A stretch of DNA of 64,000 nt from Bacilli bacterium (GTDB lineage Bacteria; Bacillota_I; Bacilli_A; RF39; UBA660). The stretch covers positions 13,462 through 77,461 of the forward strand of contig JAVBQF010000005.1 in NCBI GenBank assembly GCA_031549195.1. Direction: 5' to 3'. A program made the position numbers and the translations under genes. Below the pieces are notes generated by a model. It was not told the origin of the DNA. It worked only from the letters and a program-made list of their open reading frames with translations, and ran no database searches. This document shows, in pieces, positions 6,527-28,978 of this stretch. Each line of letters begins with the position of its first letter. Position 1 is the first letter of the stretch.

Positions 6527-7236
6527 TATGCCACCTCACAGATAATTTCTCCAAATTTATCTTCTTGAGTAATTTTCAACTCATTCTTTCTAGCCATTTC
6601 AAGTATTGCCAAAAATGTTACCACTACATATTCTTTGGTTAAAACATCAAACAATTCAAGAAAATTAACTCTCTTTTTGATATGTAAAATATTTCTTATG
6701 GAAATTCTTCTTTCTTCTACACTTATCTCTTTTTTTGTTACCTTAGTACTTATCGGTTGATTTTGTTTTTGTCTCTCCAAAAATTTACTAAAAGCATCTA
6801 ATAAATCATCCAGGGTAACATCACTATTTTTTATTACATTATCATCTACATATTCAGTATAACTTGTAGGTAGTTTTGTAAATATTGTTTTTCTTTCTTC
6901 TTCTAAGTTCTTAAAAGCTTGAGTTAAATCCTTATATCTTTGATATTCAATTAATTTTTTAACTAAAGTCTCCTTAGGATCATCCTCTTCCTCTACTTCC
7001 TCTTCTCTTCGTGGAAGTAGCATTCTTGATTTCATTTCAAGTAATTCACTAGCCATCACCAAATAACTGCTTGCAATATCCAAATTCAACTTTTCCATAG
7101 CTTTAATATAAGCCATATATTGATCTGTTATTTTCTCAATAGATAAATCCAATATATTCATCTTTGATTCTTTTATTAAGTGAAGTAAAAGATCTAATGG
7201 ACCTTCAAATTCATCTATCTTAAGCGTATATTCCAT
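6526..7236 (-). CDS. scpA: Segregation and condensation protein A (likely start at internal Met MEYTLK)
   Basis: MEYTLKIDEFEGPLDLLLHLIKESKMNILDLSIEKITDQY is the conserved ScpA N-terminus; ORF-track start at 7305 adds an implausible 23-aa hydrophobic extension. Confidence 0.85.
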   Translation of the reverse strand: MEYTLKIDEFEGPLDLLLHLIKESKMNILDLSIEKITDQYMAYIKAMEKLNLDIASSYLVMASELLEMKSRMLLPRREEEVEEEDDPKETLVKKLIEYQRYKDLTQAFKNLEEERKTIFTKLPTSYTEYVDDNVIKNSDVTLDDLLDAFSKFLERQKQNQPISTKVTKKEISVEERRISIRNILHIKKRVNFLELFDVLTKEYVVVTFLAILEMARKNELKITQEDKFGEIICEVA

Positions 7237-7311
7237 ATAATCACTACCTATCATCATAATAATGATATCATAATTTTCAATTATTAAAAAGAAAAAGAAC
7301 TCCAATAGTCC

Positions 7312-7731
7312 TTAATCTTCTATAAATAAAATATTGTTATTAAAATCTTCTTTTAATTCTCTATAACTATTCTCATCACCAATAAAAATTACTTCGTCGA
7401 ACTTATCAATATGAGATAAGTAATTATTATAATTATTAGAGATGTCTAAGATAATAGATATATTTGATTTTAAACTTTCAAAATTCTTTATTAAATAATG
7501 AGATATTCCTAAATAGTTATTATTTGTAAATACTATTACATTCTTTATGTTATATAGAATTGCACTAACGATAACCTTGTATGTAATATATGGATTACCT
7601 TCTGATAGAACTAGTATATTATTTAAACCATTTAATTCCTTAAGTACTTTTATATTATCTTTAATACTTAATAAAAACTCCTCAATATTAAATATATCCC
7701 CCATTACTTCTTTATCGACTTCATACATCTT
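7312..7731 (-). CDS. Hypothetical protein (start uncertain; 7839 in ORF track would overlap upstream gene)
   Basis: Open frame with coding-like composition; no recognisable motif. Internal Met MYEVDK avoids 95-nt overlap with 7745..9388. Confidence 0.35.
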   Translation of the reverse strand, partial: KMYEVDKEVMGDIFNIEEFLLSIKDNIKVLKELNGLNNILVLSEGNPYITYKVIVSAILYNIKNVIVFTNNNYLGISHYLIKNFESLKSNISIILDISNNYNNYLSHIDKFDEVIFIGDENSYRELKEDFNNNILFIED

Positions 7732-7744
7732 ATATAGTATTTCT

Positions 7745-9388
7745 CTATTTTCCAGCAGAAGTTGTTGGTACTGCTCCAAGAGCTCTACATTTTGCACTAC
7801 TATCACCATCCAATGATTTAACACTTCCGAGTTGTTCACCTAAAATTCTAAGAGTATCTAAATGATCTGTTGTATATCCTGTACTATTAATTTCTCTTTG
7901 AACACGATCCTGCCATGTAGGAACATTTAGTCTTTTTTTAGTATGATAAATTCTCTTAACATTTGAATTTTCTGTACTATTTATACGTTCTAATATTTCA
8001 GGTTTTGATAACTGTGACAACTCGATAAAATTGTTAACTGACATTACATAAATAGCCTGCCCAGTTGCTGGTATATTACGTCCTTCATCTAAGTAAAATC
8101 TTTCAAATATTACTTTACCATTAGGATAAACATACCCAACATACCCAGAAAATTTATCTTTTCCTCTTAGTTTAATATCATATCCTGTACTATCAAAGCA
8201 AGCCAATTTTTCTTCCAATAACGCATTGGCAGATTCTTGTTCTAGCCTAAGTTCTTCAGAGCTTTTCCTAGTTTTCATTCTTAGTGACTGTGTCCCATTT
8301 GTTATTGATTCTATTTTTTCTCCTTCTGGTATAACTTCCCAGTTAAGTGCAGTCTCAGCAATAAGTGCCTTTCGTCTTGCAATCTCTTCTTCTCTTGCAA
8401 TCTCAGCCAATCGTTGTTCATATGCCTGACCCATTGCATCTTTTGCTCCCTGATAACTTCCAGCATAATCTATTTTTCCATTAAGTGTTTTATCTGGTGG
8501 CAATGAGTTAATAAATTTTGTGTATATCTCATTAAGTAAACTTGCTGTTACAGTAGTATCAAGTCCAGAAATATTAATATATCTTATTCTGCAACTTTTA
8601 TCTTCTTGACCTCTTAAACTATTTATTGCTAACAAAGTACTATAACCATCGTTAAGTAAGTCCCCAACAGTTTCATCTTTTATATTTCCAGCTACAAAAC
8701 TTTCATAACAAATTAAAAGTGCTAACTTTTCTAAATTAATATCGTCCAATATTGAATAATCCAATTCTCTATCAAGCTTCTCTATGAAATTAGGTAAATA
8801 TCTAATTAATTTAATTATTCTATTTTTTCTATATTCATTAAAATCCATAATAGTAGCTGTTGGATGATTCTTTTTAAAACGTTTATATTTACCCTTGGTA
8901 ATTTCTGACTCATCTGGTAAAGTTCTTATATCAAAACTTGCAACTTCTTTCCTTTTTTCCCTTAGGGATTCAATTATACGATTTAACAATTCATCATTAG
9001 ATAACGATAATACCTCATCCCTATCTATATTTAATTCTTCATATGCAATTAGTTTCGTTAATAAAGCAACTCTACATCCTTTAAATATTCTACGAGTTAA
9101 TTTATTATAATCATCTTTACAGTTAGGAGCAAGCTCGATTATCCAAAACAAATCTTCTGGCTGACAGGCTATATCACTATCTGTAATAATATCACCAGAT
9201 CCAGATTTCCACCAATTCAGTAATTTATTTTTTAGGTTTTCTTTTGCTTTTTCATTATCACAACACGCCAATAAACTTTCTATTGTTATAGGAACAGAAG
9301 TAGGATGTGGATAACTTAAGTTAATCAATGCTTTAACATCATGATTTTCAAATATTTTTGTATAATCAGGTAATTCTGATGCTTCCAT
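7745..9388 (-). CDS. Large hypothetical protein (547 aa), coiled-coil centre, no recognisable catalytic motif
   Basis: Long uninterrupted ORF with good RBS context; central AEIAREEEIARRKALIAETALNWE coiled-coil-like stretch; Cys-poor, soluble. Function unknown. Confidence 0.6.
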   Translation of the reverse strand: MEASELPDYTKIFENHDVKALINLSYPHPTSVPITIESLLACCDNEKAKENLKNKLLNWWKSGSGDIITDSDIACQPEDLFWIIELAPNCKDDYNKLTRRIFKGCRVALLTKLIAYEELNIDRDEVLSLSNDELLNRIIESLREKRKEVASFDIRTLPDESEITKGKYKRFKKNHPTATIMDFNEYRKNRIIKLIRYLPNFIEKLDRELDYSILDDINLEKLALLICYESFVAGNIKDETVGDLLNDGYSTLLAINSLRGQEDKSCRIRYINISGLDTTVTASLLNEIYTKFINSLPPDKTLNGKIDYAGSYQGAKDAMGQAYEQRLAEIAREEEIARRKALIAETALNWEVIPEGEKIESITNGTQSLRMKTRKSSEELRLEQESANALLEEKLACFDSTGYDIKLRGKDKFSGYVGYVYPNGKVIFERFYLDEGRNIPATGQAIYVMSVNNFIELSQLSKPEILERINSTENSNVKRIYHTKKRLNVPTWQDRVQREINSTGYTTDHLDTLRILGEQLGSVKSLDGDSSAKCRALGAVPTTSAGK

Positions 9389-9523
9389 ATTATCTTCTCC
9401 TTTTTTACTTTAATTTATTAATAACACGAATTAATTGACTGTTATTTTATCACATTTTCTCTTATAAATCAAGAATTAATAAAAGCCATTCCTTTCAAAA
9501 TTAAATATTAATACACTTATAAT

Positions 9524-9551
9524 TACAAAATAGTACCGTTTATGGTACTAT
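9524..9551 (-). terminator. Rho-independent terminator downstream of gtrA-like gene
   Basis: Minus-strand RNA AUAGUACCAUAAACGGUACUAU hairpin followed by UUUUGUAAUU. Confidence 0.5.
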
Positions 9552-9578
9552 CTTATTTACTATTAATTAATATATCGT

Positions 9579-9998
9579 CTAATTATCTAATGATTTTCCA
9601 AAGGTGAATATCTTATTTAAAATAAATTGGGTAACAGCAACAAATACTATTGATAATAGCTTAACAATAGTCTCATCGAATCCCATCATTTTTACAAAAA
9701 CATGCATTATAACCATAGATAGTACTAGACCTATATATCCAACAAAATAAAATCTCGCGGCTCTTTTTACTACTTTATCTTTCTTTTTAAAATTGAAGTA
9801 AGTATTCAAGAAAAATGACAATGTTATCCCTAAATTTATACTTATAAAATTTGCCAAATAGAAATTTAAATTAACATTTCTTAATAAAGTAAAACTTATG
9901 GCATCTAATGCTGCGGATGTCGCGCCAATTATACCATATAATAATATTTCTTTAATAATTGGATATTTCTTTAATAATCCCATTAATTTTTTCTTCAT
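9579..9998 (-). CDS. GtrA-family membrane protein (polysaccharide/teichoic acid glycosylation flippase-like)
   Basis: 139 aa, four TM helices, GtrA signature layout (LYGIIGATSAALD...FVGYIGLV...FILNKIFTF). Confidence 0.8.
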   Translation of the reverse strand: MKKKLMGLLKKYPIIKEILLYGIIGATSAALDAISFTLLRNVNLNFYLANFISINLGITLSFFLNTYFNFKKKDKVVKRAARFYFVGYIGLVLSMVIMHVFVKMMGFDETIVKLLSIVFVAVTQFILNKIFTFGKSLDN

Positions 9999-10001
9999 AA
10001 T

Positions 10002-16941: not shown

Positions 16942-17469
16942 CTAAATTACATCGCCTTTTAACAAGTCACCAAAAGTTTTAAAGAAATACGAAATAAATC
17001 CTTGCTTTTCTACATCAGTATCTACTATTAACTCTATTTCCTTTAATGTTTTGTCTTTATATTTTATGATTAATTTACCTACTGCATCACCTTTATTTAA
17101 AGGTAATTTAATATCTTTATCTAATGATACTTCTTTAGTATATTCTACACTTACTTCTGATTTCTTACTTATTATTGTTACATCTTCTTTAGGATAAACA
17201 TTTACTTTACTGACACTCGATTTATTTAATTCTATTGTATCTATTACATCTGTCTTTTTATGTATAAGGGTAGACTTATATAAATTAAATCCATAGTCTA
17301 AAAGTGCTGTTGTCTCTTCATTTCTCACCTTACTTACAGCTTCGCCTAATACGATTGCTACAAGCCTTAAGTTATCCCTTTTAGCAGTTACAGACATACA
17401 ATATTTAGCTGCATCTGTAAATCCAGTTTTAAGTCCATCAGCACCCTCATAAAAACGTACTAGTTTGAT
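16942..17469 (-). pseudogene. dacF: dacF-like D-alanyl-D-alanine carboxypeptidase, C-terminal fragment (KTG motif plus PBP5 C-terminal domain) separated from its 5' half by the inserted element
   Basis: In-frame translation upstream of ORF-track Met reads ...LVRFYEGADGLKTGFTDAAKYCMSVTAKRDNLRLVAIVLG (KTG box); no SxxK/SxN part and no start/signal peptide here; the matching N-terminal half lies at 28331..28978. Confidence 0.7.
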
Positions 17470-17546
17470 TGTATGTTAATATTGCAATAACGAAAAATAC
17501 AAGTATTTATAAGGGTATTATAGAGGAAACAGAGATAAAAATCAAA

Positions 17547-20096
17547 TCAATTTTTAACTTTATATTCAGTAGTGAAATTTGTAATTATCATATCTCCTTG
17601 TAATTTAAACTGATTTAATAGTCTGTCCATTTCTATAACTTGTTTATAAAAATTAGGATCTGCAACATTTTCAGCAAAGTTAGAGATTGCACCTCTAAGT
17701 TTTTCAAGTAAATCTGGAGTCATGATGCGTATTTTAGGATTTGGAGAACAAGCGTGTTCAAATATATGACTATTATGTATCATCACGGGATAATAAGTAA
17801 ATTCGTTGCCTTCATATTCATTTTCAAACCAAGTAGCTGAACCATTCAATTGATTACAATCATGTTTATTAATTGTGTCTGTAGTAGTACCATTCTTACA
17901 CTCAATGACAAAATAAATACCATTTCCAATAACCCAAAGATTATCGGGACCTTTTCCATTGTCTGCTTCCGGACGAGATGAAGTTATTCCTAACATATGC
18001 GAAATATCTTTCAAAGAACTTTCAAAAGTTTCTGCTGTATCCACTGAAAATTCCAATTTTTCCAATAAGGTATTGGCTTTCAAAATATAAGAATTGGAAT
18101 CTAAATTGTTATCATTAATATAGTCTATTATTTTCTGTGCTTGCGTACCAGCTTTTTCAATAAGACGCTGATGTCTAATACCATCTAGTGGGCGAATTAT
18201 ATTTCTATTATATTGCTGTGCTGATAAAAGAATTTGCTGTGCCTCACCTTGATTTGAAAAGTTTGTATACTCAGCCAAAACTTGCATCAAAAATCCTTTT
18301 GTACTTTCGTCAGAAATAGTGTTTTTTGCTTTTTCTATAATTTTTGCTGCCTGAGAATATTGAAAAACTTCTGCACTTTCAAATGCCTCTCGCAAAGCAA
18401 CTGAAATATCATCTATTTGAGGACTTCTTTCATATGATAAAGAAGATAATGCATCTCTACTTGCTTTTATCCAATCAACGTTTCTTGGTAAATTTAGTGA
18501 ATAATTTGTTAAAGAAAATATCTCATCTATGCTAGGGTTAGGATTTCCCATTCGTAATTGATCCCATAATTGCTGAGACAATTCAAATTGTGCAAGCGTT
18601 GCTTTACTAAAATATTCTTTTCCATCCCCACGTATAAGAATATCTTTTAATCCTTTCCCCATAAACACAGCGACACAGTAATCATTATTGGAGCGAACTC
18701 CTCGACCGATACCCTGTTCAATTTTTTGAATTTTATCACTCAACAATCTTTTGTTATTTGGATTGATACCCAGCATTATCGCATCATATTTATTGGCAGT
18801 ATTAGCTACACCATCAATTACAAGAATACGACATGCATCATCTGGCAAATCTATTCCATCATATTTGTTTATTAAAACTACTAATCCAACATGCTCATTT
18901 TTAAGTTGGCTAACACCATTATCTATATTCAAATAATCTAAAGTTAAATCTGAAACATCACTCCAAAAAGCAGCTCTATTTCTAGACGGAACGATAACAA
19001 CAACATTATGAAGTAATGAAAGACTTTTTAATTTTAATTTAATTTCCACATCATTGATTCTTTTATTTATTACTTGAGGGAAAATTAATAAGCGATCTCC
19101 AATATCATTTGCTTTTTCAGGTGTAATTATATTTGTTATTTCGCTCTGTCTTAATCCCATTGCCGTAACAAAAACACTATCATCAGCCAAAGTTGCACTC
19201 ATAAATATTCTACGTTGTGCCTGTTCAAAACTTTTAATTTTTGATATCGGTATGCAATTAGGAGTAATTTCTATGCAACGAGCAGAAACTACACAGTTAC
19301 ACAACGATAAACAATCTTTTATTAAGGGTAGTTTAAACTTGATAAAATCCTTATCACTGTGCTTGTGTAAAATATCTCCAACTTCAGATACTTTATTTTG
19401 CCATACATAAAAAGGAATAAGCATATTAGTGAACGGGTCATGTATCTCTGAAATTTCTTGATATTTTTGATTTGAATATGATTTTAATGCTGTTGAAAAA
19501 ATAGACATTATTGAAGAATATACTTCTTCATCCTCTATAGGAATAGTTATCGTAAACTGATCACCAATAGTTTCTAAACATGCATGAGCATCATCTATCA
19601 AAATGCTACCAATATTAATATTATTATTATCTGAGCGCATACCAAAGACACTCTTACCATTAACTAGTTTATGAATATTGATTACAAGAATAGCTTGTTT
19701 TCTCATAAAGGGATAGTCTTCTTCATCTTGAACTACTTTGATACCTAATTTCTCTGCTTCACTACATACTTGCTGTACAAGATAATTATCTGGGACAACA
19801 TAAACTGCTGGGCCTTTTCCCTCATCAATACAACTTTTTAATATAGTAAGTCCTACAACTGTTTTACCACTTCCAGTATTCATTTTAATAATCGTATTTT
19901 TCTGTTCTCTACTTTCAAACCAAAGTTTCCAAACTTCACTTTGCACATCTCGTGGATATTCATAACTTTTATTCTTCGTTGGCAGTGACATAAAAATATC
20001 ACGTGGTTCTATACTTGATGGTGTTTTTTCAACACCCAATTTGCTAAAATCAATCATCACTTGTTCCTCCATAATATTTAACAAAAAAGATATCAT
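17547..20096 (-). CDS. SF2 DEAH-box helicase with C-terminal VRR-NUC (PD-(D/E)xK) nuclease domain, phage-type
   Basis: Walker A MNTGSGKTVVG, motif II ILIDDAHA, motif VI QGIGRGVRS; C-terminal GKGPDNLWVIGNGIYFVIECKNGTTT matches VRR-NUC G-PD...ExK. Confidence 0.75.
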   Translation of the reverse strand: MISFLLNIMEEQVMIDFSKLGVEKTPSSIEPRDIFMSLPTKNKSYEYPRDVQSEVWKLWFESREQKNTIIKMNTGSGKTVVGLTILKSCIDEGKGPAVYVVPDNYLVQQVCSEAEKLGIKVVQDEEDYPFMRKQAILVINIHKLVNGKSVFGMRSDNNNINIGSILIDDAHACLETIGDQFTITIPIEDEEVYSSIMSIFSTALKSYSNQKYQEISEIHDPFTNMLIPFYVWQNKVSEVGDILHKHSDKDFIKFKLPLIKDCLSLCNCVVSARCIEITPNCIPISKIKSFEQAQRRIFMSATLADDSVFVTAMGLRQSEITNIITPEKANDIGDRLLIFPQVINKRINDVEIKLKLKSLSLLHNVVVIVPSRNRAAFWSDVSDLTLDYLNIDNGVSQLKNEHVGLVVLINKYDGIDLPDDACRILVIDGVANTANKYDAIMLGINPNNKRLLSDKIQKIEQGIGRGVRSNNDYCVAVFMGKGLKDILIRGDGKEYFSKATLAQFELSQQLWDQLRMGNPNPSIDEIFSLTNYSLNLPRNVDWIKASRDALSSLSYERSPQIDDISVALREAFESAEVFQYSQAAKIIEKAKNTISDESTKGFLMQVLAEYTNFSNQGEAQQILLSAQQYNRNIIRPLDGIRHQRLIEKAGTQAQKIIDYINDNNLDSNSYILKANTLLEKLEFSVDTAETFESSLKDISHMLGITSSRPEADNGKGPDNLWVIGNGIYFVIECKNGTTTDTINKHDCNQLNGSATWFENEYEGNEFTYYPVMIHNSHIFEHACSPNPKIRIMTPDLLEKLRGAISNFAENVADPNFYKQVIEMDRLLNQFKLQGDMIITNFTTEYKVKN

Positions 20097-20120
20097 AATT
20101 TTAATGATATCTGAACTAGT

Positions 20121-20648
20121 TTAATTATAGCACATTCTTAGCTTTTTCTCCAGCTTATTTTGACATTTTGATACATTTCCTTGCTTACATCCTAATTCCT
20201 CTGCAAGTACCACCTGAGTCTTCTTATTACACCCTATTCCATATAAGTTTTTAATTAGATAACCATCTTCTTTATTAAGTACATTATCTAATAAATATTT
20301 AAGATAATTTAATTGTTCATCTAATATTATTTTTTCTAATATATCAGGTTTATTACTTTCTATAATATCTTCGATAGTTATGCCTTCTCCTATTTCAGTA
20401 CTTAAAGAAATACATATTAGTTTTGATTTCTTTAAAGTATGTAGTATTTGATTTCTAATACAAGTATAAGCATATGTAGAAAAAGATACATTCTTATCTT
20501 CTTTGAATGTATCTACTGCATTAATTAATCCTATTACTCCTTCATTGGTTAAATCTTCATAATCATTAGAATTAATTTTTATATTTAATTTCTTTAATAC
20601 AAAATAAACTAGAGATAAGTTATTTAAAATAATTTCATCTCTAGTCAT
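20121..20648 (-). CDS. Sigma-70 family sigma factor (phage/element-encoded, 175 aa)
   Basis: Region 2 NEGVIGLINAVDTFKEDKNVSFSTYAYTCIRNQI; region 4 HTH KKTQVVLAEELGCKQGNVSKCQNKLEKKLR. Confidence 0.7.
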   Translation of the reverse strand: MTRDEIILNNLSLVYFVLKKLNIKINSNDYEDLTNEGVIGLINAVDTFKEDKNVSFSTYAYTCIRNQILHTLKKSKLICISLSTEIGEGITIEDIIESNKPDILEKIILDEQLNYLKYLLDNVLNKEDGYLIKNLYGIGCNKKTQVVLAEELGCKQGNVSKCQNKLEKKLRMCYN

Positions 20649-21141
20649 TAGATTCTCCTATACAGGAATGAATAAATTTCTTCATCTCTTCTTGTTCTTC
20701 TAAAGTAGCGTTTTTGCTTTCACACCTAACTCCATTCCAAAGCATTACTCCATCAGTATCATAATCGATTATTTTATTATTTATATTATTTTTATAGTTA
20801 TTATTATGTCTATCTCTTGGAATAACCTTTTTATTATCTCTAGGAATAATATTACTATATTCCTTTGACCATACATCATCATTTAAAAAGATATACCTTT
20901 TACTTCTATTAGGTATATCTTTCTCATATTTAACATTTATTAATTTTAAATCTTTTAACTTTTTAATTGCTACTGATATAGCATTATTTTTAACACCATA
21001 CATATTAGCAAAATAGCTGTTAGTAGCATAGCAACATTTATTTATGTGACATAAAGCTGTTATTCTTTCAAAGATTAATTTATCTAGGAAAGATAATTCT
21101 TTAGTCTTATATACTTTTTCATCTACAATAGTGTAAATCAT
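20641..21141 (-). CDS. Winged-helix/HTH protein, phage replisome-organizer (DnaD-like N-terminal) type
   Basis: LSFLDKLIFERITALCHINKCCYATNSYFANMYGVKNNAISVAIKKLKDLKLI resembles N-terminal HTH of phage replication organiser proteins; overlaps sigma-factor start by 8 nt (operon). Confidence 0.5.
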   Translation of the reverse strand: MIYTIVDEKVYKTKELSFLDKLIFERITALCHINKCCYATNSYFANMYGVKNNAISVAIKKLKDLKLINVKYEKDIPNRSKRYIFLNDDVWSKEYSNIIPRDNKKVIPRDRHNNNYKNNINNKIIDYDTDGVMLWNGVRCESKNATLEEQEEMKKFIHSCIGESND

Positions 21142-21173
21142 TATATATTTAGTAATAATAAACTCCTAGATAG

Positions 21174-21344
21174 TTATTCATTAGAAAAGTCCTTATCTTT
21201 ATAACTATCATATTTTAATTTAGTAATATAACCTATCTCTAATAATTCAATCATTATTTTAGATATTGGTTTATTGTAAAACTTAGCCATTAGTTTTATT
21301 CTTTCAAATAATTCTAATCTAAGCCAAAATTCAAATCTCTTCAT
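21174..21344 (-). CDS. Small (56 aa) putative ribbon-helix-helix/regulatory protein
   Basis: ATG preceded by AAGGAGGAG RBS; MKRFEFWLRLELFERIKLMAKFYNKPISKIMIELLEIGYI... ; not in ORF track (below length cutoff). First ORF after the long leader. Confidence 0.4.
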   Translation of the reverse strand: MKRFEFWLRLELFERIKLMAKFYNKPISKIMIELLEIGYITKLKYDSYKDKDFSNE

Positions 21345-21817
21345 TTAACTCCTCCTTCTATTATGGACAATTATTTACTTTATTTTAGCAATATTTATAA
21401 AAGCAGGATAAGATGATTACGTAACTCTACTGATTATTACCTTATTTCATGAGAAATCAGCTTACGTAATTTCTTATTTTGCACTTGCAAAATTGTCCAT
21501 ATTGTTTGTTTTTTTTATCCATGATTTGAAACATTCCCTTGATTTAAAAGGAAATATAAGCTTTATAATTATCCATTCTAATATCCATAAACATACTTAC
21601 AATTAAAAAAGTATGGATATTTTCATTCATAACGATCACCTCCTAAAATACAAAATAATTTCATGAAAAAAGTGACCACTTCATTTAGTAATCACTTCAA
21701 CTTATAACTATTTCTATTATATCAAGCATAGCACCCCGCAATAGTTCATGCAACGCCTATTGCACTACGAATGCACTACTAATATGTATCTATATAAGTA
21801 CTATTTCGTGTGATACT

Positions 21818-21846
21818 ATATTATACTTATCACCGGTTCTTTTCAA
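21818..21846 (-). promoter_or_regulatory. Sigma-A-type promoter (TTGAAA-17nt-TAATAT) reading leftward into a ~470-nt leader
   Basis: Minus strand reads TTGAAAagaaccggtgataagtaTAATAT with exact 17-nt spacer; followed by GC-rich hairpins, an 8-codon uORF with perfect RBS, and two TTACGTAA palindromes before the RHH-like gene. Confidence 0.5.
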
Positions 21847-21883
21847 GCGCATTTCGGTTTTATTTGGCATGAATTCGGTTTAT

Positions 21884-22687
21884 TTAATTATTATTTGTAT
21901 ATTTACTTAATATTATATCTTTTTCATTTTTCAAATTTTCTATTTCTGAGTTTCTAAATGCACTTAGCAATAGTACAAAAATAAGATCCATCATTTCTAA
22001 TCTATCCTTATCTTTTAGATTATTGTATCTTAAGTCAGTTCTTTTCTTCTCATTGTGTCGAAATAAATTGTTTGAGATTTCTCCAATCAAATTACTGAGA
22101 TCTTTAGATACATTCCCCCTAATACTTTCAAACTTTTTATATATTAAAAATAATATTTTTTCTTTTTCTACAATATTAGTGCTAATTTTAAAGTCACAGT
22201 ACTCGATTAATAATTTTCCTGTATTTTCTGGGACAGTTTTCAACGTTGCATCAAGGTCAGCATTTTTTCTAATAAACACATAACCATCTTGATCAGTATT
22301 TGCTTTTGTTTCATATCCCATTTTTGAAAGAATGAAATGTATGTTATCAATTATTAATGTTTCTACTTTTTTTAATTCAGTGCTTATAGGGTAAAGTTTG
22401 TTAAGTTTATTATGAAAAATTATTATATTGAAGAGAAATTCCATTGTAAGCAAAGCTCTGTTCTCATTAGTCTTACTATATTTTTCTATCTTATCTTGAA
22501 ATTCCTTGCAATTTATGCATCCACATCGGTATTGCCACGAGCTAAAGCAAGTATAATCAATTTGTTCTGATGGTGATCCATAAGCCTGAACTCCTGCTAC
22601 ACCATTTATATAGAAAATTTCGTATAATTTCATTATTTCTTCATCCAAGTCAATATCCTTTGTATATAATTCAAAAATATTTTTCAT
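21884..22687 (-). CDS. Hypothetical protein (267 aa), possibly Abi-like
   Basis: Clean ORF, Cys cluster FSSWQYRCGCINCKEF near N-terminus; no assignable family. Confidence 0.5.
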   Translation of the reverse strand: MKNIFELYTKDIDLDEEIMKLYEIFYINGVAGVQAYGSPSEQIDYTCFSSWQYRCGCINCKEFQDKIEKYSKTNENRALLTMEFLFNIIIFHNKLNKLYPISTELKKVETLIIDNIHFILSKMGYETKANTDQDGYVFIRKNADLDATLKTVPENTGKLLIEYCDFKISTNIVEKEKILFLIYKKFESIRGNVSKDLSNLIGEISNNLFRHNEKKRTDLRYNNLKDKDRLEMMDLIFVLLLSAFRNSEIENLKNEKDIILSKYTNNN

Positions 22688-22782
22688 TTTTCCATCACCG
22701 CTTCCTTTAATAATTAATTTATTTTACTTACAATAATTACATCAGATTTAATTTCCATTCTATTTCATATAATTACTATTTT

Positions 22783-24654
22783 TTATCTACTACATCTTGA
22801 TTTAAAATATTTTTGAAGGTTTTTATCTTCACACCAAATATAGCAACCCTTCATTCCTCTAGTCATCAAAGTACGATATGTGTTTTTAATTATTAAGTCA
22901 GCTTGTTTTTGAGCTTCTATAGGATTTTCAGCCATTAATTTATTAATCCCTTTTAATGATTGATCTGTTTTAGCTCTTTTTGTATAATCAGTTACAATTT
23001 GTCCATTTTCATATCTTATATCTTTTCCAATTATAACCCCAACATAATCAAATTCTAAACCTTGACAAGTATGTATGCAACCCGCTTCATTAACTGAATT
23101 AGCATCTATTGCCCATGTTTGAGAATTACCTAAATTCCAGCTCATATTAAAGTCATATTCAGGAATAGTAATATCGTAAATTTCAGATTTGTTTTTTCCT
23201 TCACTTATCCAGTTCCAGCAATAACCAGCAACAACCCTAGATTTATTATTTATTCTATTTTTTTCTACTATTTGGTTTCTCAGTTCACATGGACTATCAA
23301 TTACTTTAAAATCATAATCATAGTCCATATCATCGAAATTAGCAGTATTTCTAATATCAAGCATTTGATCTAACCATGCTAGATATCCATCTGATCCATT
23401 ACATCTAAATTGGCTCTCTAAATCTACTATTTTTATGCCTGCTCCTAATTCATTAGCATATTTTTTTATTAGATCTACTGTTCCGACATCTTTCAAGGTT
23501 ACTTTTTGATTCTCATCAATAAAGAAAACTGAAAAGTTAGAGGCTTTAATTATTTCCTTAACTTGATTCTCTCCTAAATTTGAAAACAGTCCAGATTTAG
23601 CATTTAATCTATGGGCTTCATCTACAATCAAACAATTAATTTCATTGTTATCAGATTCAGTAAATGACCCTGATCCTTGAAATAGATTATTTATATATGT
23701 CATTTTAAATGTTCCTTTTAGCTTGTCTCTAAATACTGCTCTTGGAGCGCTATTTTTTGTGACATAAAAACTTGTCATGTTTCTTTTAGTAAATTCTACT
23801 AACAAATTTATAGCTAAAACAGATTTCCCTGTTCCAGGACCACCTTGAACAATAAATACTGTTTTATCATCTGCTGCAATAGTATCTATTGCTAATCTAA
23901 TTGCATCTTCATAAATAACTTTTTGTTCATCAATCATATTAAACTCTTTGCTTCCTTTTAACATCATTGATAAAGAGTCTTGAAGTCTCTTAGATGGTCT
24001 TATTCTTCCATTTTCAATTTTATATAAAAGTTCTCTATCATCACCTTCGAAAATATATCTTTTAATAAAAATTCTTAATTTATCAAAATCATTAGTACCA
24101 AATAATGGTGCAGCATCTATATACTCTTTATACTGCTCACTATTTATTGGATCACTTTCTTGTAAGTCATAATTATGTAGAAATGCACATGGATATAAGC
24201 CTATTTCTTCTAGCTGTACAGTTTCATTAAAATCTCGTATTAAATTAGCATAGCTCATTGCTTGATATGAAGGATGTGCAACTTCTCTTATTCCGTGGCC
24301 TGTATAAGTTGATACAATTCCATCTTTACCATCTACCGCTGTACACGTTTCCCATTGTTTTAGTTCAACAATAATTACTGAATCTTTTTTATTTTTATCC
24401 TTACCAGATAATATAAAGTCTATTCTTTTTGATGTTGTAGGAATATTAAATTCTATTGCAACTCCACAATTACCAGGTATTTCTCCATCATCTAAGACAC
24501 CTCTCATATATTGCATAGAATTCTTCCACGAATTTAATTGAGATTCACTTGTTTTTCCAAAAAAATGTTTATATTTATCATAAATCTTGTTAACAATCAA
24601 ATTTAAATTTACATCATTAATAAACTCAGATTTAATTCCTTCATATACTAGCAT
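22783..24654 (-). CDS. DUF2075/Schlafen-like nuclease-ATPase: N-terminal PD-(D/E)xK (Mrr-cat-like) domain fused to SF1-like P-loop helicase core (Nhi-like architecture)
   Basis: N-terminal DSVIIVELKQWE (D...ExK); Walker A FIVQGGPGTGKSVLA; Walker B CLIVDEAHRL; C-terminal VVAGYCWNW region typical of DUF2075 proteins. Confidence 0.7.
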   Translation of the reverse strand: MLVYEGIKSEFINDVNLNLIVNKIYDKYKHFFGKTSESQLNSWKNSMQYMRGVLDDGEIPGNCGVAIEFNIPTTSKRIDFILSGKDKNKKDSVIIVELKQWETCTAVDGKDGIVSTYTGHGIREVAHPSYQAMSYANLIRDFNETVQLEEIGLYPCAFLHNYDLQESDPINSEQYKEYIDAAPLFGTNDFDKLRIFIKRYIFEGDDRELLYKIENGRIRPSKRLQDSLSMMLKGSKEFNMIDEQKVIYEDAIRLAIDTIAADDKTVFIVQGGPGTGKSVLAINLLVEFTKRNMTSFYVTKNSAPRAVFRDKLKGTFKMTYINNLFQGSGSFTESDNNEINCLIVDEAHRLNAKSGLFSNLGENQVKEIIKASNFSVFFIDENQKVTLKDVGTVDLIKKYANELGAGIKIVDLESQFRCNGSDGYLAWLDQMLDIRNTANFDDMDYDYDFKVIDSPCELRNQIVEKNRINNKSRVVAGYCWNWISEGKNKSEIYDITIPEYDFNMSWNLGNSQTWAIDANSVNEAGCIHTCQGLEFDYVGVIIGKDIRYENGQIVTDYTKRAKTDQSLKGINKLMAENPIEAQKQADLIIKNTYRTLMTRGMKGCYIWCEDKNLQKYFKSRCSR

Positions 24655-24658
24655 AAAT

Positions 24659-24982
24659 TTACTCCTCTTCTAGTTTATTGTATTTTGTACTTTTCCCTTT
24701 CGACTTGTCTATGGGGTATTTCAATCTAGTTTTTTCTAGTTTTTCTAAAACAATATCTTCTAAATTAACATTTAATTTATTTGCAAGCAATATACAATAA
24801 TTAAGAACATCAGCTAATTCTTCGCAAACTTCATTATGGTCAAATTCAGAATTCCACTGAAAGCACTCCAATAGTTCTCCAGCTTCGATTGAAATTGATT
24901 TAGCTAGATTCTCTGCACTATGAAATTGATCCCAATCACGTTCTTGATTAAATTTAATTATTTCTTCTTTAACCTTATCCAT
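24659..24982 (-). CDS. MazG-like nucleoside triphosphate pyrophosphohydrolase (small all-alpha NTP-PPase)
   Basis: FNQERDWDQFHSAENLAKSISIEAGELLECFQW with downstream EELADVLNYCILLAN match MazG/HisE-type EExxE...D motifs; likely start at MDKVKEE (24982). Confidence 0.7.
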   Translation of the reverse strand: MDKVKEEIIKFNQERDWDQFHSAENLAKSISIEAGELLECFQWNSEFDHNEVCEELADVLNYCILLANKLNVNLEDIVLEKLEKTRLKYPIDKSKGKSTKYNKLEEE

Positions 24983-25090
24983 ACTACAAACATCCTCCAA
25001 TAATACTTTAATTATATCACAAAACCAGTCATTATCTCGACAAATAACGACCAATATTTATTTTTAATATCAAAAAAATCACTATTTTTA

Positions 25091-25297
25091 TTAAACGGTG
25101 ATTTTGTTATTTTTTTCTTTAATGTATTTATTATTATAATTACTTTTATCTGCAAAATATTCACATTTATTTGTTTCATTATCATAATTAGTTTTCATAA
25201 AATAAGATTGTAATTTTGCTGATTTTGCAACGTATCTAATACAGTTCCTTTTTAAAGGGCACTCTTCTCCTAAGCACATTGTTATATCTAAATCCAT
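25091..25297 (-). CDS. Small Cys-rich (zinc-ribbon-like) protein, 68 aa
   Basis: MCLGEECPLKRNCIRY...NKCEYF four-Cys arrangement; tightly packed between fic and mazG-like genes. Confidence 0.4.
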   Translation of the reverse strand: MDLDITMCLGEECPLKRNCIRYVAKSAKLQSYFMKTNYDNETNKCEYFADKSNYNNKYIKEKNNKITV

Positions 25298-25313
25298 ACT
25301 ACTCCTCTTATTT

Positions 25314-26159
25314 TTAATCTATATTAGAATCTTCAATGACTAAATCATTATTACTCAATTTATTTATTCCATTATTAAGTAGGTTCTCAAAAAATTTTAT
25401 TAAATATTCGTTTGTTTGATATATATTTTTAGACCTATTAGAATAATTACTTCTAACTAAAGCATTTCTAAAATATAAGGAATGTTCTTTAAATAAATCA
25501 TTGTTAACATTATATCCAAGACTTCTTAAATATTTTTCTATCATAACTGCAACAGTTCTAGTATTCCCTTCTCCAAAAGGATGAACTTGCCAAATACTTG
25601 AAGTAAATATCGCAATATGTTCTATTTGTTCTTGTATAGTTAATTTAGAATAATCATATCCCATTTCTTGCTTAAAATCATATTCATAGGTTCTTTCAAT
25701 TTCATTATAATCCGCATAAACAACTGTATCATTTTGTAATATAGGTTCATCTTTTGTAATATTATAAGTTCTATACTTTCCTGCAAAATCATAAATACCT
25801 TTGAATAAGTATTCATGTATTGATTGCAATGTTATTGGCCTTAATGAAAAGCTATTATCATTTAATAATTCAACTATTCTAGTTGAAACTAAATCACATT
25901 CTTGTTCATTAGCTATTTTTATATCACTTAAGTCTTTAGTTTTATAATAACTATGAAGAGACTCCTCTACTTCATAGTTAGTTATTTCGCCCTCCACGTT
26001 TTTATTAACTAATTCTTTTAGATAATTAGAAGGAGTCAAACCATCGACTTGTTGTAATCCAATTGCCATATTCCAATATAATTGTTTCACATAGCTATCT
26101 TTTGTTTCATCAATCTTTTTATATTCAATCTCATCGTTCATCTTAATTACTCCTTTCAT
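25314..26159 (-). CDS. Fic/Doc family protein (AMPylation/adenylyltransferase fold)
   Basis: Canonical Fic motif HPFGEGNTRTVAV (HxFx(D/E)GNGRxxR). Confidence 0.8.
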   Translation of the reverse strand: MKGVIKMNDEIEYKKIDETKDSYVKQLYWNMAIGLQQVDGLTPSNYLKELVNKNVEGEITNYEVEESLHSYYKTKDLSDIKIANEQECDLVSTRIVELLNDNSFSLRPITLQSIHEYLFKGIYDFAGKYRTYNITKDEPILQNDTVVYADYNEIERTYEYDFKQEMGYDYSKLTIQEQIEHIAIFTSSIWQVHPFGEGNTRTVAVMIEKYLRSLGYNVNNDLFKEHSLYFRNALVRSNYSNRSKNIYQTNEYLIKFFENLLNNGINKLSNNDLVIEDSNID

Positions 26160-26273
26160 AAGTTATATATATTATATCATTTTTAAAGCAATAAATATAC
26201 TTTATACATCGAATTAAGTATCAAAAAAGTCACGACTTTCGTGACTTAAATTCGATTTATTAGATAAATACTT

Positions 26274-26591
26274 TTATATTATGATTGGTAATACGTTTAA
26301 TGCTGTCAATAGTAGCATTAGTAAATACATTACTCCTAGTGTTACCATATAAATAAAGAAATAAATTATAGAACCTAAAGTTGGATTGCTTCCTCTATCA
26401 TAAAACTTTCCAGTTATAAAATAACTAATAGCCCATAATATAGAATATAATGATACTACTTCCAAAAGAATATTATTATAAATTGGATTCTTTAATATCG
26501 GAATATTATCAATAGTGCAATAACACAAATAAGCTCTTATTAAAAAACTAATTCCGCTAACGATTGGATACATAATTACCAGACCTCCCAT
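26274..26591 (-). CDS. Small membrane protein (3 TM), hypothetical
   Basis: 105-aa hydrophobic ORF directly downstream of recombinase gene. Confidence 0.35.
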   Translation of the reverse strand: MGGLVIMYPIVSGISFLIRAYLCYCTIDNIPILKNPIYNNILLEVVSLYSILWAISYFITGKFYDRGSNPTLGSIIYFFIYMVTLGVMYLLMLLLTALNVLPIII

Positions 26592-26636
26592 TTAGTTAAT
26601 TATTATATCATAAAACTAAAGGAATCTAGCCGTTTT

Positions 26637-28079
26637 TTAAAATTCTAGCTTAGTAATTACTACTTCATTACCTTCTTTTTTTACGCTTATTACTTTAACA
26701 AATCTTTCTAAAAAGTTCTTCTTTTCTTTATTAGTTAAATATTGCCAATTAAGTTTAATACTATTAACTATACCTGATATATCTTCTAATTCTATTGATT
26801 CTTCAATAGGCTCTTCTATAGTATTTATTTCATTTAATATTTTTTCTTTTTTATCGTTAAGCTCTTTAAGTAATAATTGATATTCATCTACTGGTAATTG
26901 ATCACTCATAAATAGATTTCTAGTCTCATTCTTTTTATTTTCTATTCTATTTAATTCTCTATTTAATTTATCTTTTATTTGTTTAATGTCAATTACTTCT
27001 TTAGATTTTAGTTCTATATCTTTTAAATCTACTTTAAAGTTTTCTATATTATCTAGATATTTTAGAAATACTTCTTCTAATTTATTGTGTGAAAATCCAG
27101 GTGCTTTGCATGTACCATTATAATGGCCATTACAAGCGTATGTGATGTACTTCTTGCCCTTTTGTATTTGCTGTCTCGCATGATACTTAGAACCACATAT
27201 ATCACACCTTAGACTATGAAAGAAGTATGTATCATCGCTAGAATATTTTTTAGTATGAAATTGTTTTCTTTTCTTTAACATATCCTGGGCATTATTCCAT
27301 AAATCAAGTTCTAATATTGATTCTATGTTTTTACCAACAGTCTCAAATTTTTTTAATTTATTATTACTATTTACTGCATATCTAACATTACCAATATAAA
27401 GAGGATTAGTTAAAATACTTCTAATAGTAGATTGACTCCATTTCCCACCTCTTTTAGTTGGTGTTTTATTTTTGTTTAATTCCTTACAAATAGATAGCAT
27501 AGAATCTCCATTTAAATAAGATTCATAAATATCTTTTACAATTATCTTTTCTTCTTCATTAACTTCTAACCCTTGTCCTATTATGTAGTTATATCCATAC
27601 ACTCCATTGGTATTTGTATAATTACCTTCTCTTGTTTTTTGTTCATAGCCAAATGCTACTCTTTCTGCTAAATTCTCTCTTTCAAATTCTGCGAATATTC
27701 CTAGCATTTTTACAAACATTCTTCCTACTGCATTCGTAGTATCAATTTTCTCTGTTTGTGAGTTAAATGAGCAATTATGACTTTCAAATAGATTAATTAA
27801 ATTAATTAAGTCTGCAACACTTCTTGTTAGTCTATCTAGTTTATAAACTAATATATTTCTAATCTTACCAGCTTTAACATCATTAATTAATCTATTCACT
27901 TCTGGCCTATCTTTAGTATTCTTTCCACTTATACCATCATCAATATAATAATCATGTATATCCCAGTCATTTAATTCAGCATATTTAGTTAGTTTTTCTT
28001 TTTGAGCATTAATAGAAAATCCTTCTTTAGCTTGATCTTCAGTTGATACTCTCATGTATATCGCGGTAGCTGTATTCAT
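26637..28079 (-). CDS. Large serine recombinase (resolvase/invertase catalytic domain plus recombinase and zinc-ribbon domains; SpoIVCA/CisA/phage-integrase type)
   Basis: N-terminal AIYMRVSTEDQAKEGFSINAQ (catalytic Ser), DRLTRS motif, central recombinase domain, Cys-rich zinc ribbon CDICGSKYH...CNGHYNGTC, C-terminal coiled coil. Confidence 0.9.
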   Translation of the reverse strand: MNTATAIYMRVSTEDQAKEGFSINAQKEKLTKYAELNDWDIHDYYIDDGISGKNTKDRPEVNRLINDVKAGKIRNILVYKLDRLTRSVADLINLINLFESHNCSFNSQTEKIDTTNAVGRMFVKMLGIFAEFERENLAERVAFGYEQKTREGNYTNTNGVYGYNYIIGQGLEVNEEEKIIVKDIYESYLNGDSMLSICKELNKNKTPTKRGGKWSQSTIRSILTNPLYIGNVRYAVNSNNKLKKFETVGKNIESILELDLWNNAQDMLKKRKQFHTKKYSSDDTYFFHSLRCDICGSKYHARQQIQKGKKYITYACNGHYNGTCKAPGFSHNKLEEVFLKYLDNIENFKVDLKDIELKSKEVIDIKQIKDKLNRELNRIENKKNETRNLFMSDQLPVDEYQLLLKELNDKKEKILNEINTIEEPIEESIELEDISGIVNSIKLNWQYLTNKEKKNFLERFVKVISVKKEGNEVVITKLEF

Positions 28080-28330
28080 AGTAAGTCCTCCTATTTATCT
28101 ATTAAATAGTTGTACTTCTTTCTTTTAATATTCTTGGAACACTGGTATTCATAAAAAATTTCATAATTTCTATTTGTAGTTCTTTTGGTAGTTTAATCTT
28201 CATAAACATTCCTCCATTCACTACATTATAGAAGTTTTAAAATTAAATATTCCTCCTTTTTCTTTGTTCCAAAAATACAACACCCGTTTATAACCTTATT
28301 TTATAATGGTTTACAGGCGTTATTGTAATA

Positions 28331-28978
28331 TTAATATACGACTTTATTGGTATTAACAAGCCAAAACTTATTTGGAGTATCTGTTCTTAAATAGTCTTCA
28401 TAGACAGATGAGAACTTTAATATATCTTCATGCTTTAATAATTCTTTTGCAATCATTGCTACATCGTATGCAGTTGAATAATGACTATCTTCATCTAAAC
28501 CGGTACTATTTTTAAACACGGTGTTTTTTAAACCCAATTCTTTTACTTTATCGTTCATTAACTTAACAAAGTTATCTTCACTACCTCCAATACGTTCTGC
28601 TAAAGCAACAGCTGCATCATTAGCACTGGCCATAGAAAGCCCCTTAAACAGATCTCTTACTGTCATAACTTCACCTGGCTGTAACCATATTTGGGTCCCA
28701 CCCATGTCAGCAGCCTTCTTACTTGCAGTTACCTTTTCTTCCCACGACAATGTACCATCTTCTATATGCTCTAAAATTATTATTTGCCCCATCATTTTAG
28801 TTAGTGACGCTATTGCAACTTTTTCATGTATATTTTTCTCATATAAAATATCTCCAGTCGATGCCTCAATTAGTATTCCACTTTTAGCATTCTTAATTAC
28901 ATCTTCTTCAGCATAAACATTAGGAATGATAAGAACAAACAACAGAAATGCTAACAATAACTTTTTCATAAAATTCAC
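28331..28978 (-). pseudogene. dacF: dacF-like D-alanyl-D-alanine carboxypeptidase, N-terminal fragment (signal peptide, SxxK, SxN) ending at element junction
   Basis: Signal peptide MNFMKKLLLAFLLFVLIIPNVYA, active-site ASLTKMM (SxxK) and SANDAA (SxN); frame terminates at ...FWLVNTNKVVY* with no KTG box; remainder found at 16942..17469. Confidence 0.7.

Follow-up and report, generated by a model that had tools for sequence, protein, structure and literature searches.

Do four genes packed tightly on one strand of a mobile island form one immune system, or have they merely come to lie side by side? A locus in a Bacilli bacterium of the RF39 lineage (GenBank assembly GCA_031549195.1, contig JAVBQF010000005.1) raises this question. 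We analysed a window of 64,000 nucleotides (nt) from this contig (positions 13,462 to 77,461 of the forward strand) and count all coordinates from its first letter. An earlier note, made from the sequence alone, had proposed that a Fic protein, a cysteine-rich mini-protein, a MazG-like nucleoside triphosphate (NTP) pyrophosphatase and a DUF2075 nuclease-ATPase constitute a composite anti-phage cassette. The genes in question are the following.

22783..24654, minus strand: nuclease-helicase, Nhi-like, 623 amino acids (aa); proposed effector of the conserved pair.
24659..24982, minus strand: MazG-like NTP pyrophosphatase, all-alpha, DCTPP1/RS21-C6-like, 107 aa; conserved partner of the nuclease-helicase.
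25091..25297, minus strand: four-cysteine open reading frame (ORF), hereafter Cys68, 68 aa; orphan at the junction of Fic and MazG.
25314..26159, minus strand: Fic-domain protein, 281 aa (275 aa from the gene-caller start); separable accessory module.

Comparison with related loci gave a different answer from the one proposed. The conserved unit is the pair of MazG-like and DUF2075 genes, because the two adjoin each other in 75 of the 79 assessable loci, whereas Fic is frequent but separable (14 of 80 loci) and Cys68 is an orphan insertion that recurs in none. The neighbourhood conservation expected for the whole cassette is thus a property of two of its genes. We consider it probable that the locus is a stack of separable defence-type genes on a 10.9-kb island, with a core that is a two-gene variant of Nhi-like immunity.

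These counts come from 80 species-level loci in GTDB representative genomes, each encoding a relative of the 623-aa protein at 85–53% identity, and their ORFs were searched with every protein of the island. The sample covers Bacillota, Bacteroidota, Proteobacteria, Chloroflexota, Coriobacteriia, Fibrobacterota and archaeal metagenome-assembled genomes (MAGs). Within the 75 paired loci, the MazG-like gene lies upstream on the same strand in 71 and directly downstream in 1, while the helicase ORF is broken in 3. No MazG neighbour was detectable in the other 4 (L019, L027, L074 and L081). The gap between the two genes is at most 57 nt in 31 loci, and in 29 loci it measures −4 to 28 nt. The MazG and DUF2075 distance matrices are also correlated (Mantel r 0.79; 0 of 999 permutations as high).

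The pair is also found in annotated records. On a Halalkalicoccus jeotgali plasmid (L101), a gene annotated as "nucleotide pyrophosphohydrolase" stands 5 nt upstream of a "DUF2075 domain-containing protein", and a Priestia aryabhattai plasmid (NZ_CP083270.1, L103) carries an annotated pyrophosphohydrolase and DUF2075 pair. Additionally, in a GenBank record labelled "Microcystis phage", the helicase gene is preceded by one for a PF12643 protein of 109 aa. Relatives at 70–82% identity occur in MAG bins assigned to Methanosphaera and Methanobrevibacter (L010, L027) and to Muribaculaceae (L022, L029); these could reflect either recent horizontal transfer or contamination of the bins. Carriage by archaea is nevertheless real, since complete archaeal plasmids encode relatives, at 59% identity in Methanosphaera pNP174 (L100) and 52% in Halalkalicoccus (L101).

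What kind of protein is the larger member of the pair? The earlier reading of a PD-(D/E)xK nuclease joined to a DUF2075 helicase held (PF09848 and an N-terminal structural model). The Pfam family PF09848 (SLFN-g3/DUF2075) matched residues 264–610 over its full model length (E 7.4e-105), and both the Walker A (GGPGTGKS) and the Walker B (VDEAHR) motifs are present. The PD-(D/E)xK domain spans about residues 1–200, with E68, D79 and E97-L-K99; 26 homologues with 27–48% identity to the query all retain E68, D79, E97 and K99. An AlphaFold2 model of the N-terminal part, built on these diverse homologues, reached a pLDDT of 91.3 and a pTM of 0.82, and its predicted fold is that of PD-(D/E)xK nucleases. 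Neither the full protein nor the N-terminal profile found a significant sequence match in the PDB.

Two characterised defence proteins resemble it. Nhi of Staphylococcus epidermidis (SERP2475) is a nuclease-helicase that degrades phage DNA (Bari et al. 2022; 10.1101/776245), and Nhi-like is a single-gene anti-phage protein of Bacillus cereus FSL H8-0482 (Millman et al. 2022). With Nhi, the window protein shares a nuclease and a DUF2075 helicase of the superfamily 1B-like type on mobile DNA. Unlike it, Nhi has no partner gene, and its PADLOC model (PDLC02372) covers only the helicase core, aligning residues 255–419 with model positions 198–331 of 470 (E 1.5e-13) and so falling short of a full-length match. 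For Nhi-like, we took the tested B. cereus sequence from the Millman 2022 supplement. The architecture is the same, namely an N-terminal PD-(D/E)xK domain with D...ExK, a linker and a DUF2075/superfamily 1 helicase, but the homology is remote. BLASTP aligned 227 aa at 23% identity (linker and Walker motifs, E 7e-5), and hhalign of the N-terminal profile against the Nhi-like N-terminus gave a probability of 96.4% (E 1.2e-9) and matched the catalytic motifs to one another. A 2.3-kb clone of this one gene sufficed for the validated protein, whereas the subfamily in the window nearly always follows a DCTPP1-like gene. The frequency of this arrangement suggests a two-gene unit rather than a single-gene one.

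The assignment of the smaller partner to the MazG-like enzymes also stood (Pfam PF12643 at 3.5e-18). Its closest solved structures are those of mouse and human dCTP pyrophosphatase 1 (RS21-C6/DCTPP1; PDB 2a3q/6sqw, E 5e-17). The residues of the ExxE...ExxD metal-binding motif (E33, E36, E39, E55 and D58) do not vary among 69 partner proteins, and neither do the aromatic residues that align with DCTPP1. The mammalian enzyme is therefore matched in its metal-binding Glu/Asp and aromatic positions as well as being the best structural hit, whereas the prokaryotic protein is shorter, lacks the N-terminal extension and has its gene in one operon with that of a nuclease-helicase. DCTPP1 hydrolyses 5-methyl-dCTP and related nucleotides and so clears them from the pool (PMC13291643, PMC4491611). 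By analogy with this closest solved homologue, the partner may prefer dCTP or 5-modified dCTP. MazG is among the defence domains that have been predicted and never validated (DefensePredictor, 2026; PMC13092281).

In the two-gene immunity that we favour, the nuclease-helicase would be the effector. It would load on invading or replicating phage DNA, translocate with the use of ATP and cut through its N-terminal PD-(D/E)xK domain, as in Nhi. The MazG-like enzyme would convert non-canonical deoxynucleoside triphosphates (dNTPs), likely dCTP and 5-substituted dCTP if homology to DCTPP1 is a guide, into monophosphates (dNMP) and pyrophosphate. This might deprive the phage of the modified nucleotides that shield its DNA, or it might keep modified nucleotides released by DNA breakdown out of the host DNA; both roles are possible and they are not mutually exclusive. 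Fic, which in gut Bacilli often sits upstream of the pair, would be an accessory effector that works independently.

The order and spacing of the two genes might instead be those of a toxin-immunity or abortive-infection couple, where a host-toxic nuclease-helicase is curbed until infection by MazG, which either removes an activating nucleotide or binds the toxin. MazG strictly comes first, with spacing that points to translational coupling in 29 loci, and the small partner is retained even where other genes separate it from the helicase. There is also a precedent in Escherichia coli, whose MazG modulates a toxin-antitoxin system via (p)ppGpp hydrolysis. Furthermore, the preprint on Nhi raises host-DNA damage and slowed division as possible (10.1101/776245). 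However, the invariant catalytic residues indicate an enzymatic function and argue against a purely binding one, and the closest homologue takes dCTP-type substrates, not alarmones. Moreover, the four loci listed above have the nuclease-helicase with no detectable MazG neighbour. We regard such a couple as quite unlikely.

A further feature of the pair became apparent at its junction. In 39 of the 71 loci with an upstream MazG, the two genes are separated by 150–3500 nt, and these intervals hold about 25 unrelated gene types (loci L005–L084). The domains encoded there include HEPN_AbiU2, AIPR, AbiEi with AbiEii, HNH, DUF4145, Hypoth_Ymh, HEPN, GIY-YIG-DUF2075 and PLD-helicase-DUF3427 with NUDIX, and many of the cargo types have no match in Pfam. 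The ribosome-binding site and start codon of the cargo lie within about 10 nt of the MazG stop codon, and the DUF2075 start then trails the cargo stop. The junction acts like a hotspot for defence genes that is embedded in an operon. The window has no cargo at this position, just 4 nt; there it is the junction between Fic and MazG that is occupied, by the 68-aa ORF.

Hotspots of the P2/P4 type consist of defence genes framed by conserved genes in mobile elements. The junction resembles them in that defence genes of unrelated kinds are found at a single fixed place between conserved genes, and it differs in that the slot lies within a two-gene operon and the cargo, equipped with a ribosome-binding site of its own, follows immediately on the MazG stop.

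We also looked for a site-specific insertion signal at the junction. Direct repeats around the cargo exceeded shuffled controls in 2 of 43 loci, and a general signal of this kind was rejected, as the 41 other cargo loci have no repeats resembling attachment sites. The two loci with repeats, L072 (~8060–10000) and L061 (~6610–9990), contain 27–33-bp copies of the MazG 3′ end or of the MazG-DUF2075 intergenic region; their alignments score 23.5 and 23.0, whereas the shuffled sequences score 10 and 14.

The surroundings of the pair have a similar character. Across the 80 loci, 133 flanking proteins match type II methyltransferases, HNH, Mrr, the PADLOC candidates PDC-S07, PDC-S16, PDC-S41 and PDC-S73, nSTAND3, Cas9_REC and AbiU2, and there are matches to recombinases and integrases as well. 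In six loci (L039, L054, L055, L058, L061 and L072) DUF3427 enzymes together with NUDIX lie at most 7 kb from the pair, and the Priestia plasmid (L103) has a protein with an MrcB_N domain and a MutT directly upstream of it. We take MrcB_N to be the 5-methylcytosine-binding domain of McrB-like enzymes. Readers of modified cytosine (DUF3427 or MrcB_N) accompanied by NUDIX/MutT therefore stand beside the pair in 7 loci. A dNTP enzyme in a defence context is likewise a feature of the dCTP deaminase and dGTPase defences and of NUDIX/MutT-linked restriction; the difference is that the enzyme here has the all-alpha MazG fold, not a deaminase, HD or NUDIX one, and is coupled to a nuclease-helicase. 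It has been reported that DUF3427 modification-dependent restriction enzymes adjoin DUF2075 NTPases (Lutz et al. 2019, PMC6765204). Judged from gene content, these neighbourhoods hint that the pair belongs to a theme of modified-DNA restriction.

The same distribution must be weighed against a reading in which the pair is not immune at all, but a module for maintenance or for DNA repair/replication that serves mobile elements or the cell. In that case the helicase-nuclease would process element DNA or damaged DNA, the pyrophosphatase would sanitise dNTPs and the defence genes would be mere co-cargo. At least 8000 clusters were counted, thousands of them at 80% or more; such high conservation and wide spread are unusual for defence genes and could fit the housekeeping of mobile elements equally well. 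In gut Bacilli the pair looks like part of a backbone, flanked by serine recombinase and DnaD-like genes, with variable genes around and within it. Both the MazG family and DCTPP1 are classic house-cleaning enzymes, and the partner has no PADLOC model. On the other hand, pairs in Bacteroidota, Proteobacteria and archaeal plasmids occur without a recombinase or replication backbone and in variable neighbourhoods on the same or the opposite strand, while the island in the window has replication-type genes of its own. Since Nhi and Nhi-like, the characterised proteins closest in architecture, are antiviral and neighbours and cargo are mostly restriction, Abi and HEPN genes, we find a maintenance role unlikely, albeit deserving of serious attention.

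Several other observations weigh against the two-gene immunity that we prefer. The Mantel correlation given above is in part a product of shared phylogeny, and r is just 0.38 in the close Bacilli subset. The loci were picked by their similarity to the query (at least 53%), so the linkage holds for this subfamily only. PADLOC models of Nhi, AbiO and PDC-S41 match just parts of the nuclease-helicase, and none matched the MazG-like protein. The validated Nhi-like protein, at about 23% identity, acted as a single gene and was cloned without a MazG. The specificity proposed for the pyrophosphatase is extrapolated from a mammalian homologue. A full-length AlphaFold2 model, based on a shallow 80%-identity alignment, reached a pLDDT of only 55.7 and was not used. 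Finally, IMG/VR was scanned twice (with the protein and with an alignment) and contained no relative of the nuclease-helicase, which makes the link to phages indirect; the Microcystis record is the one instance of phage carriage that came to light.

We now turn to the two genes that lie outside the pair. The Fic assignment was confirmed (Pfam PF02661 at 9e-12). The motif HPFGEGNTR, however, had been called perfect, and it departs from HxFx(D/E)GNGRxxR at two positions, with T for the second G and A for the last R. The window motif, HPFGEGNTRTVA, therefore lies outside the canonical pattern; it retains the catalytic H, the F, the E, the G-N and the first R. The variant H(P/A/S)Fx(E/D)GNTRTxA is kept in 24 of 25 Fic homologues, and this conservation of GNTR..A disfavours simple AMPylation chemistry. 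Among PADLOC models, Fic matched the single-gene candidate family PDC-S72 at E 2.5e-91 (residues 20–277 on model positions 15–271 of 377). It differs from this family in lacking about 100 C-terminal model positions and in carrying GNTR..A, not GNGR..R. Among solved structures, VbhT and NmFic come closest.

Does this Fic protein depend on an antitoxin? Its residues 32–66 are weakly VbhA-like (PF18495, E 0.01, below threshold), with LQQVDG at the position of SxxxEG. Because of this internal segment, a separate antitoxin would not be needed. A single-sequence PDB search for a VbhA-type antitoxin found nothing and the Pfam match was sub-threshold, as noted; the separate antitoxin gene with an (S/T)xxxE(G/N) helix that defines class I Fic toxin-antitoxin systems was not observed. 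On the basis of its sequence matches, Fic most likely acts alone as a PDC-S72-type effector. A standalone Fic protein, SoFic, was shown to be defensive (Millman 2022), and the SoFic model is absent among the PADLOC matches of the window protein.

The suggestion that the mini-protein serves as an antitoxin or adaptor found no support: its gene comes after Fic in the operon order, and it shows no similarity to VbhA. The domain assignments proposed for the cassette stood for Fic, MazG and DUF2075, and the 68-aa protein has no significant family (sub-threshold matches to DUF6078 at 0.0018 and to phrog_20586 at 2e-4). Among 5.8 billion sequences it forms 2 clusters, namely itself and one 70%-identical relative in an unrelated context. 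It was found in 0 of 84 related loci, including none of the 14 other Fic-MazG junctions. Cys68 is, as far as these comparisons reach, a lineage-specific insertion at the Fic-MazG junction, outside any conserved unit.

How, then, does the proposal of one obligate four-part anti-phage system fare, with the mini-protein as antitoxin or adaptor and Fic as an effector under a nuclease-helicase sensor? The four minus-strand ORFs are all present (22783–24654, 24659–25054, 25091–25297 and 25314–26159), on one strand and with short gaps. The MazG ORF reaches 25054 when extended to a TTG, while an ATG at 24982 yields the 107-aa product, which is the gene callers' version and is present in public databases as an exact match. 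The ATG at 24982 is most likely the true start. The gaps had been put at 4–36 nt; those of 16 nt (Fic-Cys68) and 4 nt (MazG-DUF2075) were borne out, whereas the gap between Cys68 and MazG amounts to 108 nt, not 36, because of the start at 24982.

Transcription of the four genes as a unit appears plausible. One additional feature is relevant here.

26227..26247, minus strand: terminator-like hairpin with a 9-bp stem and then a run of T; separates Fic from the recombinase/membrane-protein unit.

This hairpin (26247–26227) lies just 5′ of Fic, and the consensus scan, the only method applied, found no other within the four-gene stretch; in total the scan returned 3 sites against 1.9 expected. The hairpin is likely the 5′ boundary of a transcription unit running from Fic to DUF2075, which is compatible with co-transcription. 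A promoter scan returned 78 matches against 77.6 expected, i.e. the chance level.

In 14 of the 80 loci, all of them gut or rumen MAGs of the Bacilli type, MazG is immediately preceded by Fic, and most of these junctions are as tight as 2–16 nt. The four genes together appear again only in a Logan assembly (L085), retrieved with the 107-aa product. This assembly has the same sequence, however, and is not an independent lineage. An exact-sequence look-up of the 623-aa protein gave no record, and megablast of 17–29 kb against phage and plasmid records gave no match. The Fic-bearing loci do not form a clade, since DUF2075 distances are 0.22 between Fic loci and 0.25 between Fic and non-Fic loci. 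Fic genes 54–84% identical to that of the window were found with neither MazG nor DUF2075 in six metagenomic loci that carry at least 3–6 kb of downstream flank (L086–L090 and L093). With Cys68 missing from all 84 related loci and its lone relative placed elsewhere, and with Fic belonging to a single-gene family, a single four-part system is very improbable. It is worth stressing that the cassette indeed corresponds to no named system, as had been supposed, since the PADLOC run matched no multi-gene system.

The element that carries these genes was delimited as follows.

About 17464..28345, strand not assigned: integrative island with the four genes, ~10.9 kb; splits the dac gene.
28343–28978 and 16942–17463, both on the same strand: halves of dac (D-Ala-D-Ala carboxypeptidase), which join into an intact 385-aa protein with Peptidase_S11 and PBP5_C.

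The mobile element with a serine recombinase that the earlier note had recognised was thus borne out and given its limits. The dac ORF (28331–28978) breaks off after "...LVNTNK" and its remainder ("LVRFYEGADGLKTG...") picks up at 17463 on the same strand; because the joined halves restore the intact protein, positions 17464–28345 are an integrated island. Its ends form an imperfect inverted repeat, TTAATATT(A/G)CAATAACG, and both junctions share the short core CAAT.AAA. The serine recombinase (26637–28079), at one end, has Resolvase, Recombinase and Zn-ribbon domains in Pfam. Recombinase domains, a split target that can be restored and inverted-repeat ends are together the marks of large-serine-recombinase elements. 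A full prophage reaching coordinate 1 was considered and dropped once the second half of dac was found at about 17.46 kb.

On the minus strand the island encodes, in order, the serine recombinase, a 105-aa membrane protein, Fic, Cys68, MazG, DUF2075, a 267-aa protein, a 56-aa ORF, a DnaD-like replication protein, a sigma-70-like factor and an 849-aa helicase. The last of these, a DEAD/ResIII helicase (17547–20096, minus strand) with a nuclease-like "VIECKNG" motif near its C-terminus, matches the PADLOC candidate PDC-S28 almost end to end (6.6e-298) as well as phrog_16128 (2e-231). It is a candidate second defence gene of the island, judging by these matches, and together with the match of Fic to PDC-S72 it agrees with the defence-like context that had been proposed.

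The interval 20121–21141 (minus strand) encodes a sigma-70-family protein of 175 aa, truncated-looking, that overlaps a 166-aa helix-turn-helix protein of the DnaD-like/replication-initiator type. The former is SigK-like at 2.4e-24, far under the cut-off, and matches phrog_351. Relatives of the latter adjoin Fic, MazG and DUF2075 in eight loci (L007, L025, L032, L038, L045, L046, L050 and L063), where a serine recombinase is usually present too; relatives of the sigma factor do not recur. These recurrences point to small replicative islands or satellites that form a family among gut Bacilli.

Three smaller regions of the island also stood out. A 33-aa ORF (MKIKLPKELQIEIMKFFMNTSVPRILKERSTTI; 28104–28204, minus strand), which separates the end of the island from the start of the recombinase and which gene calling also picked up in L085, may be an excision/directionality factor or a leader peptide. 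The ~540 bp at 21345–21883, between the 56-aa and 267-aa ORFs, contain no minus-strand ORF of 40 aa or more and could hold the island origin, a regulatory region or an RNA gene. The 267-aa protein (21884–22687, minus strand), which follows the nuclease-helicase after a 95-nt gap, matched nothing in Pfam, NCBIfam, PHROGs or PADLOC and has no relative across the 84 related loci.

In general, the components of this locus are all of known kinds: an Nhi-like nuclease-helicase, a MazG/DCTPP1 enzyme, a PDC-S72 Fic and a serine-recombinase island. What appears to be new is the nearly constant pairing of a DCTPP1-like enzyme with one large Nhi-like subfamily in bacteria and archaea, and a junction within this pair that serves diverse defence genes as a slot. 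In the literature searched, we found no description of DUF2075 or Schlafen with MazG, or of Nhi with a pyrophosphatase, which is not proof that the association is unpublished. We offer tentatively, as a possibility that we hold to be doubtful but worth pursuing, that the pair is an undescribed two-part immune system of bacteria and archaea, in which sanitising or depletion of modified dNTPs would be required against phages with modified DNA and the junction would be a docking slot where interchangeable sensors or effectors (AbiU2, AIPR, AbiE, HNH, HEPN or DUF3427 enzymes) join the operon.

For annotation, the locus is a caution that operon-like tight packing on an island does not equal one system. 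DUF2075/Schlafen nuclease-helicases are antiviral effectors in bacteria and humans and have so far been treated as single-gene systems. The pairing described here ties DNA-degrading immunity to the control of the (modified) dNTP pool in six bacterial phyla and in archaea, and it provides a concrete and abundant test case for defensive MazG domains. Both partners have human homologues, namely DCTPP1 and the helicase domain of SLFN5/11/13; if the prokaryotic link is true, it would prompt the same question in human antiviral and replication-stress biology. Additionally, the Abi, HEPN and restriction genes at the junction of the pair make it a new mining site for defence genes in uncultured gut Bacilli, and this cargo may reveal the route by which accessory modules are recruited.

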